Shown here: one piece after another, positions 3,086 through 11,264 of the stretch | Layout of the letters: the number at the start of each line of letters is the position of its first letter | Numbering within the stretch: position 1 is the first letter of the stretch | DNA from: a virus | UHGV virus genome: UHGV-1497419 | Length of the DNA: 64,000 nt | Strand: one strand, 5' to 3' | Program-made: the position numbers and the translations under genes | Notes under the pieces: generated by a model | The model's input: the letters and a program-made list of their open reading frames with translations, nothing else | Databases searched by the model: none | What the model was told of the DNA's origin: nothing

Positions 3086-3781
3086 TCAATGTTTAACTAA
3101 CATGGTTTTAATGTGTGGAAGGATTCTGTTCACCTTCTGCACATTCTTCTCTGTATCTTCTATAAAGCATACTATATTAAAGTAAGGCAGAATGCAAGAC
3201 TGAATCATCCTCACTTTCAAACTTTCTGCACTTATAGAGTTAGCCCCAAAACCACGCATAAAAAGCATGTAGTCATGCTCTGTGTTATGCCTTAAAAACA
3301 TCTCAGTAGGTATTCTCTGAGATTCACCTCTCGCTGTCAAGAGTCCAACAGCAGCATGATTAGCAATTGCATCAATGATATTGAAAACATACGTTGGCTT
3401 TGCTCTTACAGAATCAAGAAGATTGGTATACTGTGAGAATGAACCATCAGTCAATTCCGTTGAGCAATCTTCGTGATTAAAATTTGTAAGAACACCATCA
3501 ATATCTGCTAAGATGAGATTCCCTTTTTCTACAAGGTCTTTATTGACTATGACTAAGCTATCACGACTTACACCTATAGTTTGTCCAGTCTCTTTATCTA
3601 CAACATTCACAATTGGCTCTGATGTGTGAAACTCTTCTAGTGAACATACAACTTCTCTTGCAGTGTCTTCAAAATCCCTACACTGTTCTGGAGTCCATAC
3701 ACAGGAATCAAGACCTAACTCATGAGGATGTAAGTCATAAGCATGACACAGTACTTCATCAGACTTTCTTAATTTTTTCAT
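3086..3781 (-). CDS. HAD-superfamily phosphatase (possible nucleotidase)
   Basis: HAD motif I-like ILADIDGVLT; T5-like phages encode a HAD deoxynucleotidase, so this is a plausible analogue (inference). Confidence 0.4.
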   Translation of the reverse strand: MKKLRKSDEVLCHAYDLHPHELGLDSCVWTPEQCRDFEDTAREVVCSLEEFHTSEPIVNVVDKETGQTIGVSRDSLVIVNKDLVEKGNLILADIDGVLTNFNHEDCSTELTDGSFSQYTNLLDSVRAKPTYVFNIIDAIANHAAVGLLTARGESQRIPTEMFLRHNTEHDYMLFMRGFGANSISAESLKVRMIQSCILPYFNIVCFIEDTEKNVQKVNRILPHIKTMLVKH

Positions 3782-4307
3782 GATTTACCTTAGAAATGTT
3801 TGTTGCAAATTCACATTGAGCAATTACTTTCATGTTGTTATAGACATCTTGAGAATATTTCTTAGCTTTAGGGATTCTGTACGAATACCCAGCATTATAT
3901 GATGCTAAAACTTTTTGTAAAGTCTTCTTTGACTTTGGCTGACCATGCACCTTTGTCCAAAACTCAAGCTCTTTGTGAGTTTCCTTCGCAGCATAGTCAA
4001 AGTCTTTTAAGAGTTTCTTTTTAGCCACATTAGGACTAATTTTGTTACGCTTTACAACAGTCTTCAAGTGATTCTGGAAAATACCATAATCATGTGTCTT
4101 TTTATTCTCTACCTTCAGACCTAACTCTGACTCTTGTAAGGCTATAGCAGCTAGAGTGATACCCCAACCTTTACCCATGTTATTCTCACCATACTGGTAA
4201 GCTTTTAACATGTTTACTTTTTGGCTAATTGATAGCTCTGGGCAGTCAACTGCATAAGATAAGTGTGCTGTAAACATTAAGCACAAACCTAGAATCAATT
4301 TCTTCAT
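3759..4307 (-). CDS. lytic transglycosylase with N-terminal signal peptide (candidate endolysin)
   Basis: Signal peptide MKKLILGLCLMFTAHLSYA; SLT-like core AAIALQESELG...YGIFQ; next to the spanin pair. Confidence 0.5.
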   Translation of the reverse strand: MKKLILGLCLMFTAHLSYAVDCPELSISQKVNMLKAYQYGENNMGKGWGITLAAIALQESELGLKVENKKTHDYGIFQNHLKTVVKRNKISPNVAKKKLLKDFDYAAKETHKELEFWTKVHGQPKSKKTLQKVLASYNAGYSYRIPKAKKYSQDVYNNMKVIAQCEFATNISKVNHEKIKKV

Positions 4308-4368: not shown

Positions 4369-4394
4369 AAAAAAGGCCGCCGAAGCAGCCTTTT
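4369..4394 (-). terminator. terminator hairpin (GGCUGC-UUCG-GCGGCC on minus RNA) flanked by T-runs on both strands
   Basis: Inverted repeat with a UUCG tetraloop and one G-U pair, immediately after the rIIB-like stop. Confidence 0.45.
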
Positions 4395-4407: not shown

Positions 4408-5517
4408 TTAGATTTCACGTTTACGTTGGGAGATAAGTTCTCCAGCAGTACCAACGATGACATGTAAAGCTTCAGTCTTGCCATCCCATGCTTTCAGCAC
4501 TTTACGTTGATTATCAACGATTGCTGCAACTTCATAACGAGACGAGCGCATCTTCATATCGTTGTAATCAGTTGGTACGGATACAACGTCTCGTGGATGG
4601 ACACGAACCTTCAGAATTGTATCACCTGAGAAACAACGAACATAATCCCAAGCACCAACATGAAGACCTTGAGAGCAAGTCACGTTACGGTTATTATCAA
4701 CCATCCAACGTGGCATTTCTACAATGTTACCCAAATCATTAGGTACTCTGTAGGTGTGGGAGTCAACCAGCTTGCCTTCACGAGTAGATACTTTCTTCCA
4801 ACCAATGATGTAGCCTTCTTCATCAATTTCAACATCAAGGTGAGATACGAAGCCCCAAAGTTGTTCTACGGAATCTTTAGATGGGTTTTCCATCAGTTTT
4901 TCGAAGAACATCACAAGACGTTCGAAACCTTTATCTCCAGTCTTCATCATGTGAAGAATACGGTCAACCAGAGTAGAACGCATCTCAACAGCACCGTAGA
5001 ATAACTTGTCACCTTTGATTGTGATAGCACCCTGAGTGAAGTTTTCGATAGACTTACGAATGTTCATCAGTTCAAAGGCTTTCTTGAACTCACCTTTCAC
5101 AACATGAACTACAATCTCTTGATAGTTCGGATGAGTAGATTCAACAATTTCAGACTCTGAACCGTAAGTCATAATTACAGAGTCGCCAGTAATCATGTAC
5201 TCAATCTTGTCATCTTTCTGCATAGCTTCGTGCAGTTTATTTACCGGAGCTTTCTGTACATCCTCTTTAACAGCCTTTTTAACTGGCTTGTCAGCTTTCT
5301 TTTTAAAGGTCTTAGCAACTTGCTTCAGAGTCTTCGTAGCTGGTGTAGAAGTCGCCTTCTTATTCCCTTTTAAGGTTGCTTCATGACGCTCTACGGCACG
5401 ACCGACTGAACGGGTTGAGGTGTTAAATTTCTGTGCAATAGCGGTTTTAGTCAGCTTGCCCTCTTTAACCAGTTTGTAAATTTCTGCGTCAATCTGTGCT
5501 TTAGTTTTAGTAGTCAT
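4408..5517 (-). CDS. rIIB: rIIB-like protein (putative), N-terminal HTH-like segment
   Basis: Sits immediately downstream of the rIIA-like gene as in T4; similar size class; no diagnostic motif recognised, so the call is positional. Confidence 0.35.
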   Translation of the reverse strand: MTTKTKAQIDAEIYKLVKEGKLTKTAIAQKFNTSTRSVGRAVERHEATLKGNKKATSTPATKTLKQVAKTFKKKADKPVKKAVKEDVQKAPVNKLHEAMQKDDKIEYMITGDSVIMTYGSESEIVESTHPNYQEIVVHVVKGEFKKAFELMNIRKSIENFTQGAITIKGDKLFYGAVEMRSTLVDRILHMMKTGDKGFERLVMFFEKLMENPSKDSVEQLWGFVSHLDVEIDEEGYIIGWKKVSTREGKLVDSHTYRVPNDLGNIVEMPRWMVDNNRNVTCSQGLHVGAWDYVRCFSGDTILKVRVHPRDVVSVPTDYNDMKMRSSRYEVAAIVDNQRKVLKAWDGKTEALHVIVGTAGELISQRKREI

Positions 5518-5596
5518 CTTATTACTCTCTCTTGTTAGTTAATAAATCATTTTGTGATGCTATTTTAAGGGGCTTTGAAGCCCCTTGTCAAACACT

Positions 5597-7963
5597 TTAA
5601 TCGTAAATTGTAGTCCCTTCTGGAACACATTTTACATCAAAGCCTAAGAACTTACTCACTTCGATGGGTGACACTTTATTCCAATCTAAATGAGAAAGCA
5701 AGAAGTTTTCTTGTTTTCTTTTTGAAAGGTAGTTTGTCACCTTAATGACCATACGGTCACCAGCTTTCTTAATTTTCTTGTACAGCTTTGTATCATTGTC
5801 AAGGCATTCTTTCAAAGTTTGCAATCTACTAACAGTGTAAGTGTATGCAAACGGTGCAGCAACGTATTGGATTTTACCGAACATTGCCTCTACAGCCTCT
5901 TCATTACCTTCTAGGAAGATAGTTTTGTTTGTATCCCGTGAATAGCAATAACCACGAGAAATCTTCCTATTATTGAATGTAAAGTTTCTGGCAATAATCC
6001 AGCTACTTGTAAGGTCAAGAACACCATTCATGTAGATGCGTGTCATATACCTGTTATGATTAATCCAATGAACATCAGTTAAGCTGTCGTTCAAGAGCTT
6101 CTCATCTACTTCAATCCAGTCTTCTGGTATCTTTTTCCAATTTGCTTTTCGGAAAACATAGACTGTCTTTCCAATAACATTAGCAACTGACTTAGCTACA
6201 TCTTCTGGGGATGAGCAAAAACATTCACCATCAACTGTGTCACCAATTGCCTTAATGTAAAGCTGAGGTTCTTCAATTGTGTCTAAGTCCTCTGACACCT
6301 CTTTGTAGGAGGCTACACCTTCTGCTGGAACAGCTTTCCAGAGTTTTACAACACCTCTTACAGCTTCTTTACGCTGGTAATGGTGTTCCTTATCAGACAT
6401 TTTCACAATCTTTAACAAGCTTTTATCAAGTTTGTGTAGATTGATTAAATCATCTAACTCTTTTTCAGTCGAGAATACAAACACAATACCATTATATCTG
6501 TGAAACAGACTGGACTCACTGGCGTAGTCTCGACATGCACCACGCAGAATCTGATTGCGTCCTACAGTCTTCTCAGTTCCGTTTTTATTGCGACGGTCAT
6601 TAATCACGAACAAAAACTGTTCAATTTGGCTTTTACGCATTGCACCAAAGATATTGAACATACTTGCCTCTTGAGTGTAGGAAAGTGCTGTTGCACGAAT
6701 CTTACTCTCTAAAGAGTTGAACTTAACATAAGCAACTGGGTTATAAAGATAATCTACTTTAGGAATGTTGTTTCCGTTCCTATCAACCTTAATATTACCT
6801 TTACCGTCACGTTCATAAATAACTGAGCCGTCTTCTGCGTAGATAATCCCACGACGAATGTTTAGCAATTCTTCTTCCAGAGAATCAAGCTTAACACCGC
6901 CCCACTCTAGCTTTGGACACACAGCATTAAACATCTCTCGTGAGTTCAAACGTAACTCAGCATAAGCCTGTGCAGCATCCATGAGTGTAGGTTGGTTATT
7001 AACTTTCTTGATAACATCCTTTGTAATGGCTTCAGTTATCTTTTTGGTAGCCTCAATGATGACATTTTTTGTCGTATCATTCATCTGCAATGCTTCACGA
7101 GAAGCTGCAATAGCAACTGAACCAATAGGCATGTAGATGTTTACAAGGTCTACGCTCCTACGGAAAAATTCTGGCAATACTTTGAAGAAATCATCACCAA
7201 GTAATGCTTCCATGTTAACAGGGTAGGCAATGTTACCCATCACCACATTAAACTCTGTCCTGTTATCACTAGAACGCCAGCTTAGCTTATGAATCATGGC
7301 ATCATAAACACCCTCTTCACGGGCAATGACGTTCATATCTGCTAATACATCGTTGTACACAATATTACTTTCTGGTTTTACAGCAAAGTATGAGTATACA
7401 TTACCAGCTTCTTCAAAGAACTTTGAGATACGGTGGTCAGCAACTGCCACACGTACAGCTAAACCATTAGGTTCTTTTGTTGGGTTAGTTGTCAGCTTAG
7501 TTACTTGAGGAATACCATTCTCAAGATAAACAGAGTACTTATTAACAACACCATCAACATAGCTAGATACTGTGAATGACTGAGCAATTGCAAATGGTGA
7601 CTTTGAGCCGATACCCATTGCACCAATGTAATCATTAGAGTCATTCTTCGTAGAAGCTCCGTAGTTCAGATACAAACTCATTACTTTGTCATGGGTTAAA
7701 CCAGTTCCAAAGTCACGGACTTCAAAGTAAGGCTCAAACCGAGTAGGTAAATGCACATGGAACGGGATGTTCTCTTTTCCAGCTTCTTTCTGAGCATCTA
7801 CTGCGTTACATGACAGTTCACGAATAACTGCCCTTTCTTTAAATGTGTATACACCAGAACTCAAAAGGCTGAACATTTCAGGTGTCATTGTAATCTGTGC
7901 TTGAGACGTCTCTAAAGAAGTTGAACTCTTAATCACTTCTGCGTGGTCGTTTACCATGCGCAT
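5597..7963 (-). CDS. rIIA: rIIA-like protein with GHKL/HATPase_c ATPase domain
   Basis: N-box E..NAVDA (ELSCNAVDA), G1 box DFGTGL and G2 box GAMGIGSKS in the N-terminal third; 788 aa, comparable to T4 rIIA. Confidence 0.55.
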   Translation of the reverse strand: MRMVNDHAEVIKSSTSLETSQAQITMTPEMFSLLSSGVYTFKERAVIRELSCNAVDAQKEAGKENIPFHVHLPTRFEPYFEVRDFGTGLTHDKVMSLYLNYGASTKNDSNDYIGAMGIGSKSPFAIAQSFTVSSYVDGVVNKYSVYLENGIPQVTKLTTNPTKEPNGLAVRVAVADHRISKFFEEAGNVYSYFAVKPESNIVYNDVLADMNVIAREEGVYDAMIHKLSWRSSDNRTEFNVVMGNIAYPVNMEALLGDDFFKVLPEFFRRSVDLVNIYMPIGSVAIAASREALQMNDTTKNVIIEATKKITEAITKDVIKKVNNQPTLMDAAQAYAELRLNSREMFNAVCPKLEWGGVKLDSLEEELLNIRRGIIYAEDGSVIYERDGKGNIKVDRNGNNIPKVDYLYNPVAYVKFNSLESKIRATALSYTQEASMFNIFGAMRKSQIEQFLFVINDRRNKNGTEKTVGRNQILRGACRDYASESSLFHRYNGIVFVFSTEKELDDLINLHKLDKSLLKIVKMSDKEHHYQRKEAVRGVVKLWKAVPAEGVASYKEVSEDLDTIEEPQLYIKAIGDTVDGECFCSSPEDVAKSVANVIGKTVYVFRKANWKKIPEDWIEVDEKLLNDSLTDVHWINHNRYMTRIYMNGVLDLTSSWIIARNFTFNNRKISRGYCYSRDTNKTIFLEGNEEAVEAMFGKIQYVAAPFAYTYTVSRLQTLKECLDNDTKLYKKIKKAGDRMVIKVTNYLSKRKQENFLLSHLDWNKVSPIEVSKFLGFDVKCVPEGTTIYD

Positions 7964-7991: not shown

Positions 7992-8168
7992 TCACTTATT
8001 AAACATTTTACCAGAACCACCACAAATAGGGCAACAACCTGCTCTTGTATACCCTTCTCCGTTACAGTAGTCACACTTTTTGTGTTCTGCAAAGTACTTA
8101 CAAAGAAGGCAAACAAATATTGCTACACTACCAAGTGACAGTAAAATTTCTATCCAATACGCTTGCAT
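7992..8168 (-). CDS. small membrane protein with two DnaJ-type CxxCxGxG zinc-finger repeats (58 aa; below the ORF-track length cut-off)
   Basis: Hand translation: MQAYWIEILLSLGSVAIFVCLLCKYFAEHKKCDYCNGEGYTRAGCCPICGGSGKMFNK; ATG at 8168, stop at 7992-7994. Confidence 0.3.
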   Translation of the reverse strand: MQAYWIEILLSLGSVAIFVCLLCKYFAEHKKCDYCNGEGYTRAGCCPICGGSGKMFNK

Positions 8169-8485
8169 GACTCACCTCTCATATTCTTGTAAAGGATAAA
8201 GCTTCTGTCATGGACGATACTTGTAGACACTGCAAAGTTACTTTCAAGCATCTGTTTGTTTGGATTGTAGAAGCTTTCTTTAAACTCGTCAAGTGCAAAT
8301 TGGTGATGTTGCGGAAGACCTTTTACACAGACCTTTATTGTGATTGCTGCTGCGACCTTGCCAGTCAGTTCTTCTTGAGCTGCTACCAAGATTTTGTTAA
8401 GGAACTTATGACCATCTTCAGGCTTCTTGATGTTCTCCCAACGTTCTTCTAAGACAATGTTGATGTTCATCTCTTTGATTTTCAT
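8150..8485 (-). CDS. hypothetical protein
   Basis: 111-aa ORF between the NAMPT-like gene and the rIIA-like gene. Confidence 0.35.
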   Translation of the reverse strand: MKIKEMNINIVLEERWENIKKPEDGHKFLNKILVAAQEELTGKVAAAITIKVCVKGLPQHHQFALDEFKESFYNPNKQMLESNFAVSTSIVHDRSFILYKNMRGESCKRIG

Positions 8486-8502: not shown

Positions 8503-8524
8503 AAAAAGGCTCCCGTAGGAGCCT
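8503..8524 (-). terminator. rho-independent terminator (AGGCTCC-cgta-GGAGCCT plus T-run on minus strand)
   Basis: Perfect 7-bp stem and A-run on the plus strand, directly after the NAMPT-like stop. Confidence 0.55.
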
Positions 8525-8538
8525 CTTATCATATACTT

Positions 8539-10320
8539 TTAAAGCTGCTTGTCAATATTATTTCGAATATCCCCAAGAGTTGTGTAACCGAACTGCTCAG
8601 AGTCACTAAAGACTAAACGTAAGGCACAAGCTGGGTGGTCAAGTACATCTGCAAAACTCTGGAATCCATAGCCATCTATAGCTTTCAGCTTGTCACCATC
8701 CCACATAGGTGCTACACCACCAAAGGCAGATTTCTTAACACCACTATCTGTTTTAGGGTCTTTTGCAAGCATAATCTCTTTACCACCAATGCTTGCAAGA
8801 GTTGCTTTGACAGCAAATGCAAAGGTGTCACGAGTCATGTACTGGTAAGTGTAAGAACCTACGCCAAACACTACGTTAGAGCTTGCAAAACCCATTTCAT
8901 ACAGACGCTTCAGGATTTCGTTTGCACGTTCCAGTGTGATAGAGTCACCATAGATAAGGCCGATGTGCTCATCCAGTACCTTAAACCCTTTAGAGTTAAC
9001 AGTTCCCCCAAAGATGTTGTACAGCGTCTTAATAGCTCCATCAATCTCCGCTACAGGACGTGTTACAACGTTTGCAGAACCAACCATATAAGCATTCTTC
9101 AGCAGTACTGTATCAGCAACTTCAAAGTCTTCTCTGTCAACAACCATTTCGTAGCCTTCTGACAGTAGCCATCCAGCAATACCATAGTTAATGTTTTCAA
9201 GCTTCATGTTCAGGACAGAGTTCAGCATTGTATCACTTGCCTCCAGCTTGCTTAGGTGTTCGTAATAAGCCTTCTTAGCACACTCTAAGTGGATTGCTTT
9301 ATAACCTGTGACAATATGTACAGGGTCTCCAGAGTCAGGGCGAATTACCAGTTTACCATCACGTTCCATAATTTCTTTACGGAGTGCTGGTAAGATTTCT
9401 GACACAGTTCTCCAGAAGTTATAAGTATCTGAAACAATGCTTGCAATACCAGTTGGGTAAGTTTCTGTTAAGAAACGACGGAAGGTTTGCAACTCACCTT
9501 TAAAACGTCTTTCTTCTTCAATCAATTCGTTACCGCCTTCCCAAGCAATGTTTGCACACATTACAGAGTGTTCAGTGGCTGGTACAGAGCTACCAATATC
9601 AGAGATTGGGTAAGACTGTCCATAGATTCGTTTAGCCGTATACACAGCAGGGAAGCTATCAGTTCCTTTAAAGCTGGTTAAGTGACCTACAGCGTTAAAT
9701 GCGTCATCAGTAAAGCCGGACATACCACGCATAGCAAAGTCATGGCACTGATAAGGTAAATGTAAGTCGTTGTCGCAAGTAAGGTCAGCCCACTTCTTAC
9801 AGATACGTTTATAATGCAATGCAATAGTTGCAATGGTACAAGCCTTCCAAATCTCAGCAGAGAAAGCATCCTCCAGATACCCCGCTACCCAATGGAAACC
9901 TGAAACAGTGTTCTGGAAGACAATCATTGGGACACGCATAGGGACAACTGTACCTTCTTCTACAGCGTATACTTCAACTGGTAGATAACCTAAGTCGTGA
10001 AGTGCTTCCCAATGCTCTCGACCGATAGCATCTTTACCCAGAACACCATTCATGACTTCTAAGATTTCATCAATGGCTTCTTTTTTATCACGTTCAAAGA
10101 AAGTGGCGTTCCAGTGGTCTATCAAGTAATCTTTAACGAAACGTTGAATACCAAAAGCCACTACACCATCAATTGCTAAGGGGCTGTTAAACCATTTGTC
10201 ACTACGTGGTGTCAGGTTGAACATCAAATACTCTGTTGCACTAGGATACTGGTAAACATGACCAGATTTGTAAGCATCTGCGTTTAAACCTGCTGGTACT
10301 GCATAAAGTGATTTAGTCAT
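8539..10320 (-). CDS. nicotinamide phosphoribosyltransferase family protein (NadV/NAMPT-like; candidate Namat of an NARP1 pathway)
   Basis: Blocks matching human NAMPT from memory: DAYKSGH..QYP, LPVEVYAVEEGTVVP, HDFAMRGMSG...FKGTDS, PATEHSV, SIVSDTYN, VIRPDSGDP, GLIYGDSI. Confidence 0.85.
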   Translation of the reverse strand: MTKSLYAVPAGLNADAYKSGHVYQYPSATEYLMFNLTPRSDKWFNSPLAIDGVVAFGIQRFVKDYLIDHWNATFFERDKKEAIDEILEVMNGVLGKDAIGREHWEALHDLGYLPVEVYAVEEGTVVPMRVPMIVFQNTVSGFHWVAGYLEDAFSAEIWKACTIATIALHYKRICKKWADLTCDNDLHLPYQCHDFAMRGMSGFTDDAFNAVGHLTSFKGTDSFPAVYTAKRIYGQSYPISDIGSSVPATEHSVMCANIAWEGGNELIEEERRFKGELQTFRRFLTETYPTGIASIVSDTYNFWRTVSEILPALRKEIMERDGKLVIRPDSGDPVHIVTGYKAIHLECAKKAYYEHLSKLEASDTMLNSVLNMKLENINYGIAGWLLSEGYEMVVDREDFEVADTVLLKNAYMVGSANVVTRPVAEIDGAIKTLYNIFGGTVNSKGFKVLDEHIGLIYGDSITLERANEILKRLYEMGFASSNVVFGVGSYTYQYMTRDTFAFAVKATLASIGGKEIMLAKDPKTDSGVKKSAFGGVAPMWDGDKLKAIDGYGFQSFADVLDHPACALRLVFSDSEQFGYTTLGDIRNNIDKQL

Positions 10321-10367: not shown

Positions 10368-11264
10368 TCAATCAAGGTTTGCTACAGTAACTTGACTGTA
10401 ATGTGTTAAGCCACGGTCTTTAGCTTCGCCTAAAGAGTTTGTAGTGTAAATATGGTCGATACCATTGTCAAGAAGGTTTTCAACATCTTTAGAGAAGATA
10501 CCATGTGTTACATAAAGTTCCACACGTTTTGCACCTGCTTCACGAAGATGCTTCGCTGCTTCTATGAAGGTTCGACCACCATCACAGATATCATCCAGAA
10601 TCATGACGGTTTTATCTGTCAAATCAACATCATCAAGGATTCGCATACTAGTAATTTCACCAGTCTTAAGGTTACGCACTTTAGACATTGTGATGTATGG
10701 TTTATCCACCTCTTTAGCAGTCTCTGCAATCTTCTTAGCAGCACCTGCATCTGGGGCTACTAAGTAATCAATCAGTGGGTCATTTGCATAGTGGACTGCA
10801 ATTTCCTTTTGAGGAATACTCTGGAAGCAGTTAAACAGGTTATCTGGTACATAGCTGTGAGGGTCAACTGCACAGACTGCATCAAAACCCATTGCATTAA
10901 CCTGTTGTGCAAACACTTTCAAAGCTGCTGCATCACCTTTAAACATGTGACGGTCGTAACGTGCATTTGGCAAATAGTAAAAGATAGCAGTCTTCATAGC
11001 AAACTTATGAGGTACTAAATCATCAATTGCTTCTTTAGCAAGTGCCACAGCAAACAATGTGTCCTTATCATAACCTTTTACAATCATAATCACATTGTTG
11101 ATAGATGATGCTGCATAAGCAGTAAAATCAACAAACTCTGGCGAAAAGTGTCCACCAATCTCACCAGAAGGGAATTGGACGATGTTAAACTCTTCTTCAT
11201 GAGTCCCTTTAGTTGGTGAATGAACTGTAACACGGATAGATGTTTTCATAGTTTTCTCTCTCAA
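10368..11264 (-). CDS. ribose-phosphate pyrophosphokinase family protein (Prs-like; candidate Adps of an NARP1 pathway)
   Basis: Prs signature blocks LPNARYDR, VDPHS, VAPDAGAAKK and the PRPP-binding loop VMILDDICDGGRTF...AKRVELYVTHGIFS. Confidence 0.8.
   Translation of the reverse strand: MREKTMKTSIRVTVHSPTKGTHEEEFNIVQFPSGEIGGHFSPEFVDFTAYAASSINNVIMIVKGYDKDTLFAVALAKEAIDDLVPHKFAMKTAIFYYLPNARYDRHMFKGDAAALKVFAQQVNAMGFDAVCAVDPHSYVPDNLFNCFQSIPQKEIAVHYANDPLIDYLVAPDAGAAKKIAETAKEVDKPYITMSKVRNLKTGEITSMRILDDVDLTDKTVMILDDICDGGRTFIEAAKHLREAGAKRVELYVTHGIFSKDVENLLDNGIDHIYTTNSLGEAKDRGLTHYSQVTVANLD

Follow-up and report, generated by a model that had tools for sequence, protein, structure and literature searches.

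Genes rIIA and rIIB in a Felix-O1-like phage: a probable counter-defence pair, and structural leads on its two proteins

Do two adjacent genes of the virus genome UHGV-1497419 correspond to rIIA and rIIB of phage T4, the pair that counters RexAB, and what would they do in a phage of another type? We addressed this question in a 64,000-nucleotide stretch of the genome (the window), at positions 4408-7963 of which an earlier reading of the letters alone (the sequence-only reading) had proposed an rIIA/rIIB-like pair in a non-T4-type genome. The findings described below indicate that the two genes are orthologues of T4 rII and very probably form a two-gene counter-defence module, which would be dispensable on naive hosts and would let the infection finish in cells carrying abortive-infection systems (RexAB, QatABCD). 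The genes, with lengths in amino acids (aa) and nucleotides (nt), are as follows.

5597..7963, minus strand: rIIA gene, 788 aa, ATG start, 2367 nt, about 89.5 kDa
4408..5517, minus strand: rIIB gene, 369 aa, ATG start, 1110 nt, about 41.9 kDa, pI 9.3

The outer coordinates and both protein lengths given by the sequence-only reading agreed exactly with the six-frame list of open reading frames (ORFs), and both genes were found on the minus strand, which that reading had left unnamed. rIIB lies 3' of rIIA in the same orientation after a spacer of 79 nt, in the same order as in T4, and Shine-Dalgarno-like purine-rich sequences precede the ATG of both genes. ORFs of 2367 and 1110 nt cannot arise by chance in DNA of 39% G+C; the short plus-strand ORFs within the rII region are of 51-114 aa.

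In pairwise and hidden Markov model comparisons with T4 rIIA and rIIB, by which the sequence-only reading had proposed to check the pair, both families were matched. The 788-aa protein matched the phrog_612 profile 'RIIA' with an E value of 1.2e-189 (aa 1-770 on profile positions 1-716 of 725) and T4 rIIA (NP_049616; from NC_000866) by BLASTP with 32% identity over 306 columns (aa 24-317, E 2e-36). Furthermore, the patterns of a GHKL ATPase, namely the N-box ExxxNxxD (E49/N53/D56), G1 DxGxG (D84/G86/G88), and G2 GxxGxG (G114/G117/G119), were invariant in 68 aligned homologues; the description of this protein as a GHKL ATPase like that of T4 was thus confirmed. The 369-aa protein, whose call as rIIB the sequence-only reading had considered in need of confirmation, matched phrog_609 'RIIB' (E 9.7e-89) and T4 rIIB (NP_049889) by BLASTP with 36% identity over 331 columns (aa 11-339 on T4 13-312, E 1e-60), that is, over essentially the whole T4 protein, and was also matched by RIIB folds, as described below. 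Judged from these alignments, the rIIB call is more secure than the rIIA call. The opposite possibility, an unrelated ATPase followed by a protein without rIIB similarity, was excluded by the PHROG and T4 BLASTP matches.

The resemblance to T4 therefore comprises a co-oriented adjacent pair with rIIA first, a GHKL N-terminal domain and an 'SRE' (Ser-Arg-Glu) motif common to both rIIA proteins, and rIIB proteins that are homologous over the full length, helix-turn-helix (HTH) region included. In contrast, the C-terminal halves of the rIIA proteins (aa >320) were unalignable, the identities were only 32% and 36%, and rIIB of the window carries in addition a lysine-rich linker (~35 aa) and is longer by 30 aa at its C-terminal end. 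The genomes are also of different types, the window being of the Ounavirinae type (~87 kb) and T4 of the Tevenvirinae type (169 kb).

The window was assigned to Felixounavirus (Ounavirinae), a genus of Felix-O1-like myoviruses, by 95-97% nucleotide identity to relatives of ~85-90 kb, and its description as a non-T4-type genome accordingly held. When the rII locus was used as a megablast query, 278 phage records were matched, of which 211 covered at least 80% of the locus, mostly with 90-97% identity; all of these are Felix-O1-like phages, with Escherichia, Salmonella, Shigella, and Citrobacter as hosts. In more than 200 records, the matched genes carry rIIA/rIIB annotation. Over the first 25 kb of the window, the best records of the phage collection were ~95% identical and none was identical. 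Given these values and the locus matches, the window is, by nucleotide identity, a new isolate within this heavily sampled genus. The presence of an rII pair outside T4-type phages is commonplace and thus no surprise: tblastn with rIIB matched 2911 phage records of many lineages, including Vequintavirinae, Ackermannviridae, N4-like podoviruses, phiCbK, and Streptomyces phages. The pair in this window is already known, is annotated in hundreds of genomes, and has had its role tested in near-identical relatives; rIIA is gene 1 of Felix O1 and has been annotated since 2010 (PMC3185647).

Two close relatives, Bas63 (Escherichia phage JohannRWettstein, MZ501086; g84/g85) and Felix O1 (NC_005282, genes 1 and 2), belong to the same genus and have the same gene order and lengths as the window pair. 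In the Felix O1 record, rIIA begins at the internal Met26, the genome having been opened there. SUSP1 (Suspvirus, Ounavirinae; NC_028808, agp081/agp082) belongs to the same subfamily and shows the same synteny. The rIIA protein is 97.6% identical to Bas63 gp84, 96.5% to that of Felix O1, and 62.9% to that of SUSP1; the corresponding values for rIIB are 83.2% (gp85), 94.9%, and 79.8%.

The function of the pair has been examined experimentally in such relatives. When rIIA or rIIB was knocked down by CRISPRi-ART in T4, MM02, EdH4, SUSP1, and N4, cells free of Rex showed no effect, and plating was reduced on cells that expressed lambda RexAB (PMC11879866). In Bas63, g84 and g85 were identified by PhageMaP as counteracting QatABCD; deletion of either gene cost 10^4-10^5 in plating, this loss was largely made good by complementation, and the deletion phages were viable and defective only on the defence host (bioRxiv 10.1101/2024.10.10.617714). 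The same preprint gives gp84/85 a homology of '>80%' to T4 RIIA/B, which does not fit the 32% and 36% observed here for proteins 83-98% identical to those of Bas63. It has also been reported that T6 RIIB alone activates a CARD-gasdermin defence, so that the module can itself be sensed (bioRxiv 10.1101/2023.05.28.542683). The counter-exclusion role suggested by the sequence-only reading is hence supported by analogy with SUSP1 (RexAB) and Bas63 (QatABCD), from which it would be carried over to the present phage; the role itself is not new.

What kind of protein is rIIA? The following two features were assigned.

7364..7891, minus strand: rIIA N-terminal GHKL (Bergerat-fold) ATPase domain, about aa 25-200 (motif conservation, NCBIfam, PDB profile, hhalign)
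7094..7102, minus strand: rIIA S288-R289-E290 in the family motif 'IAASREaL', candidate Hsp90 middle-domain catalytic-arginine loop (conservation, segment profile)

Pfam by itself left the call open, since a scan of rIIA and rIIB gave nothing above the family thresholds and HATPase_c was marginal on rIIA (E 0.12); some rIIA homologues bear PF13589. The NCBIfam model of the Hsp90-family N-terminus matched rIIA with an E value of 2.7e-11. A search of PDB sequences with rIIA as a single sequence gave no match, and the family profile matched the N-domain of TRAP1, the mitochondrial Hsp90 (E 5e-5). In hhalign, aa 30-175 were aligned with positions 16-181 of E. coli HtpG with a probability of 94.6%. 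From the conserved motifs, the predicted ATP-binding GHKL site of rIIA is intact. Iyer et al. have described rIIA as a GHKL domain followed by a variable C-terminal domain (PMC7824862), and the GHKL membership is thus published. A literature search for a resemblance between rIIA and Hsp90 returned almost only Fc-gamma-receptor papers, and prior publication was not established. PADLOC detected in rIIA a similarity at the GHKL level only, to Tiamat TmtA (E 1.2e-8), and nothing in rIIB or in two small ORFs upstream, and it gave no sign of the pair being itself a defence system.

The AlphaFold2 model of rIIA, built on the family alignment, had a mean predicted local distance difference test (pLDDT) score of 87.7. 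When this model was used for a fold search of the PDB, all of the top 50 matches belonged to the Hsp90 family (TRAP1, HtpG, GRP94, Hsc82, and Hsp90; best E 2e-18). The alignments extended over 580-780 columns, well past the N-domain of ~200 residues, and covered the N-terminal and middle domains. Furthermore, in the 68 homologues R289 and E290 were invariant and S288 and L292 nearly so; the motif is also present in T4 rIIA. The predicted resemblance to Hsp90 (HtpG, TRAP1, GRP94) thus consists of the Bergerat N-domain motifs, the alignment of the N-terminal and middle domains, and the candidate 'SRE-L' loop, whereas rIIA is more compact (R289 as compared with R336 in HtpG) and differs in its C-terminal part. 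This comparison may indicate a likeness in the possible working mode rather than family membership.

The rIIB model (AlphaFold2, mean pLDDT 86.6) consisted of three parts.

5365..5517, minus strand: rIIB N-terminal three-helix HTH domain, aa 1-51 (AlphaFold2, pLDDT 95-97, helices 6-19, 24-30, and 35-51)
5257..5358, minus strand: rIIB lysine-rich linker, predicted disordered, aa 54-87 (pLDDT <50)
4498..5235, minus strand: rIIB conserved alpha/beta body, aa ~95-340 (~94-366 in the model; conservation, T4 alignment, high pLDDT)

Foldseek matched the HTH domain to the N-terminal DNA-binding domains of DeoR, RcsB, DosR, and MuB with root-mean-square deviations (rmsd) of 1.2-1.5 A and probabilities of 0.9-0.96; the E values of these matches were above 0.7, the domain being small (40-45 residues matched). 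The Pfam HTH matches were weak (HTH_Tnp_ISL3, E 0.0014, below the family threshold); several homologues carry precomputed assignments to HTH families. The linker region (aa 46-110) contains 17 lysine and arginine residues and is variable, or absent in T4 rIIB. In the body, the motifs NPS..V..L, TCSxGLHV, and HPRDVVS[VI]PxDYNDxKMR (HPRDVVSVPxDYNxxKMR in the window) were present and aligned with T4. Among 82 homologues, G235, V273, C281, G284, and P308 were invariant and H286, D310-P315, K322, and R324 nearly invariant; the invariant residues all lie within the body.

Only the HTH domain was matched in the PDB fold search, and the body gave no PDB fold match at E<=0.001. The rIIB family profile had no match among PDB sequences, and the single-sequence search gave chance-level matches only. 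In BFVD, 32 matches at E<=0.001 were obtained; with a single exception, which bears the label 'Transposase', those with names were RIIB or membrane-integrity-protector proteins, and T4-like, N4-like, and phiW-14 proteins were among them. The Pfam model PF26926.1 is precomputed on 118 of the 120 listed rIIB homologues and was absent from the Pfam scan output for rIIB of the window. Among the BFVD matches was also the 'RIIA-RIIB' fusion of RB43 (1049 aa), and the N-terminal part of phrog_609 (1055 positions) matches rIIA and its C-terminal part rIIB. Since some phages encode both as a single fused polypeptide, these data argue that rIIA and rIIB act together as one unit. rIIB departs from Bas63 gp85 mainly in two places, the linker and aa 240-369, whereas rIIA is nearly unchanged between the two phages. 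This pattern suggests mosaicism (recombination) in the rII unit or a faster evolution of rIIB, possibly driven by sensing defences.

The three-part architecture bears on a different explanation, in which rIIB would mainly be a DNA-binding transcription factor tuning phage or host transcription and the anti-defence phenotype would be indirect. This was proposed by Iyer et al. (2021), and rIIB is listed as a specific transcription factor in PMC7824862. The HTH domain is indeed confidently predicted (pLDDT about 96) and DeoR/RcsB/DosR-like, is accompanied by the weak Pfam HTH matches and by HTH families on homologues, and is followed by a basic, lysine-rich linker. However, the HTH domain and the linker are the least conserved parts of rIIB, for most of the distant homologues the alignment begins no earlier than about aa 100-130, and all invariant residues lie within aa 235-308. 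In T4, the start of rIIB tolerates pairs of frameshifts and was dispensable in classical genetics, and B function is retained in the fusion deletion r1589. An r1589-like fusion is also mentioned in the literature, but as hypomorphic. In addition, RIIB expressed by itself is toxic and sets off the gasdermin system (bioRxiv 10.1101/2023.05.28.542683), which a plain repressor need not do. Hence, we regard a primarily transcriptional role as very unlikely.

The names given to the family point in another direction. PHROG and RefSeq call these proteins 'lysis inhibitor' and file them under 'lysis', and the rII genes adjoin an SLT-domain-like ORF (3759-4307) and lie ~2 kb from the i- and o-spanins; moreover, the classical r phenotype of T4 is rapid lysis. 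The pair could accordingly be a lysis-timing (lysis-inhibition) module that acts with the nearby SLT-like protein and the spanins to delay lysis. Neither rIIA nor rIIB resembles a holin, antiholin, or endolysin in the Pfam scan and the PDB fold searches, and for T4 Paddison and colleagues reportedly concluded in 1998 that rII lies outside the lysis-inhibition machinery proper. The phenotypes of the relatives also speak against lysis timing: plating of the five knock-down phages, SUSP1 included, was unaffected without Rex (PMC11879866), and the Bas63 deletions were defective nowhere other than on the defence host (bioRxiv 10.1101/2024.10.10.617714). Taken together, these findings leave lysis timing with only a very small probability, and a counter-defence module is the reading that we prefer.

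How could such a counter-defence module work? The defences that it counters would be membrane depolarisation by lambda RexAB, and QatABCD, both of which would otherwise shut the cell down. rIIA would act as an ATP-driven dimeric clamp in the style of Hsp90, with ATP hydrolysed by the conserved N-domain and the 'SRE' arginine loop. The lineage-variable C-terminal half of rIIA and the conserved body of rIIB would engage a membrane-proximal host or defence component, and this engagement would prevent or reverse either the trigger of the defence or its effector step. rIIA and rIIB would work as a single unit, as the fused polypeptide of some phages suggests. As a predicted cost, other defences could sense rIIB itself, as in the case of T6 RIIB and CARD-gasdermin. 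We further propose, tentatively and with less than even confidence, that rIIA is no generic GHKL protein but a genuine viral branch of the Hsp90 clade. Such a branch would have kept the ATP lid domain and R289 and would work as an ATP-driven clamp, with the variable C-terminal half and the rIIB body capturing or remodelling unrelated abortive-infection components (RexAB, QatABCD).

Several points weigh against the counter-defence reading and the clamp proposed for it. With identities of only 83% between its rIIB and the Bas63 protein that was tested, and of only 63% between its rIIA and the SUSP1 protein that was tested, the present phage may differ in its specificity for RexAB or QatABCD. The mechanism of QatABCD, depolarisation by QatB, is itself a proposal only (bioRxiv 10.1101/2024.10.10.617714). 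The clamp, and the step from an Hsp90-like ATPase and rIIB to the neutralisation of RexAB or QatABCD, are what we infer. Membrane association of the rII proteins is assumed from what is known of T4; a Kyte-Doolittle scan predicted no transmembrane segment in rIIA or rIIB, the maximum 19-residue means being 1.29 and 0.69, respectively. As for rIIA, its C-terminal 60% was without similarity to T4 rIIA in BLASTP. Its fold matches with Hsp90 rest on a predicted structure, and their TM-scores were modest (0.3-0.57, rmsd 8-18 A), as is to be expected when a protein has several domains that are flexibly oriented to one another. The hhalign alignment with HtpG ended at aa 175, beyond which no sequence similarity was detectable apart from the SRE motif, and a profile comparison of segment 300-788 with HtpG likewise showed none (E 0.15). 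The segment profile placed the SRE motif on HtpG 334-376 (VSREILQ, R336), but the score was no more than 6.4 bits, with an E value of 5e-4 for one sequence. Because this alignment is weak, we treat the equivalence of the SRE loop to the catalytic-arginine loop of Hsp90 as a lead.

For the window itself, these results matter little. They confirm an annotation that is routine in this frequently sequenced genus of phages. The only added value lies in the structural points, which we offer as leads: an Hsp90-like rIIA with a conserved arginine loop, and a three-part rIIB. They concern the whole rII family, as do the invariance of that arginine loop, the probably dispensable HTH domain of rIIB, and the invariant Cys281 and nearly invariant His286 in the rIIB body. 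Bas63 and other Felixounaviruses are now genetically tractable, and the leads are directly testable. If true, the viral-Hsp90 reading would provide a concrete and testable mechanism for a 70-year-old genetic locus, as a property of the whole rII family and not of this window.

Does the neighbourhood of the pair fit such a role? The following genes flank it.

8539-10320, minus strand: nicotinamide phosphoribosyltransferase (NAMPT), upstream of the rII unit
10368-11264, minus strand: ribose-phosphate pyrophosphokinase (PRPP synthetase), upstream, on the NAMPT side of the rII unit
3759-4307, minus strand: 182-aa SLT-like ORF directly downstream of rIIB (phrog_600, a family of unknown function)

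The Bas63 orthologues g80 (NAMPT) and g79 (PRPP synthetase) counter the NAD+-depleting system Sir2-HerA and, partly, retron Ec86. In view of this activity, the 4.4-11.3 kb region may be read, by analogy, as an anti-defence cluster in which rIIA/rIIB stand beside a NAMPT and PRPP-synthetase pair for NAD+ salvage. The synteny is identical in Bas63, SUSP1, and Felix O1, in the order PRPP synthetase, NAMPT, small ORFs, rIIA, rIIB, SLT-like protein, polynucleotide kinase, and spanins. The 182-aa ORF matched Pfam SLT below the threshold (E 9e-4; score 19.2 bits, cut-off 21.3); it is labelled 'putative lysin' in phage Andreotti, and the endolysin annotation of SUSP1 sits on a different gene. The 'lysin' label is doubtful because the SLT match is sub-threshold and the SUSP1 endolysin is another gene.

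The extent of the transcription unit was estimated from the following signals and small ORFs, in which promoter-like and terminator-like denote consensus matches.

8555-8528, minus strand: promoter-like TTGACA-N16-TATGAT (near-consensus match only)
8527-8504, minus strand: terminator-like hairpin of the upstream NAMPT gene, overlapped by the promoter-like site (scan)
8150-8485, minus strand: 111-aa ORF upstream of rIIA (phrog_4262, a family of unknown function; Bas63 counterpart bas63_0082)
7992-8168, minus strand: 58-aa ORF, 28 nt upstream of rIIA (phrog_3931, a family of unknown function; Bas63 counterpart bas63_0083)
5562..5591, minus strand: promoter-like TTGACA-N18-TAAAAT in the rIIA-rIIB spacer (scan, 11/12 matches)
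5584-5569, minus strand: hairpin GGGGCT-tcaa-AGCCCC inside the spacer of the promoter-like site (perfect 6-bp G+C stem)
4371..4394, minus strand: intrinsic-terminator-like hairpin and T-run, 14 nt past the rIIB stop (10-bp stem, 5 G-C pairs, TTTTTTATTT tail)

The region 8504..8555 is the probable 5' boundary of a unit comprising orf111, orf58, rIIA, and rIIB, and the hairpin at 4394-4371, which is conserved in Bas63, SUSP1, and Felix O1, is the probable 3' end of the rII transcription unit. Bas63, Felix O1, and SUSP1 share the intergenic hexamers and the hairpin stem between rIIA and rIIB with the window; among these four Ounavirinae the loop alone varies (TTCAA, TGAAA, TTTGA). The element might act as a regulated promoter, in RNA stability, or as a weak attenuator.

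Both small ORFs are annotated in Bas63, where the 58-aa product is labelled 'putative membrane protein'. This product has an N-terminal hydrophobic helix followed by two CxxCxGxG motifs of the DnaJ zinc-finger type (CDYCNGEG and CPICGGSG), and its ORF is conserved beside rIIA in SUSP1 and Bas63. Its identity with T4 rIIA.1 was considered and rejected by inspection, the T4 protein having neither cysteines nor a hydrophobic helix.

A tRNA search found no tRNA genes in the whole window; the SUSP1 record has a tRNA cluster, and its counterpart in the present phage presumably lies outside the window. The GC skew changes sign between ~30 and 40 kb of the window, from about -0.1 to +0.17, and then reverts, which would be explained by a gene block on the opposite strand, the remaining window being minus-strand coding.

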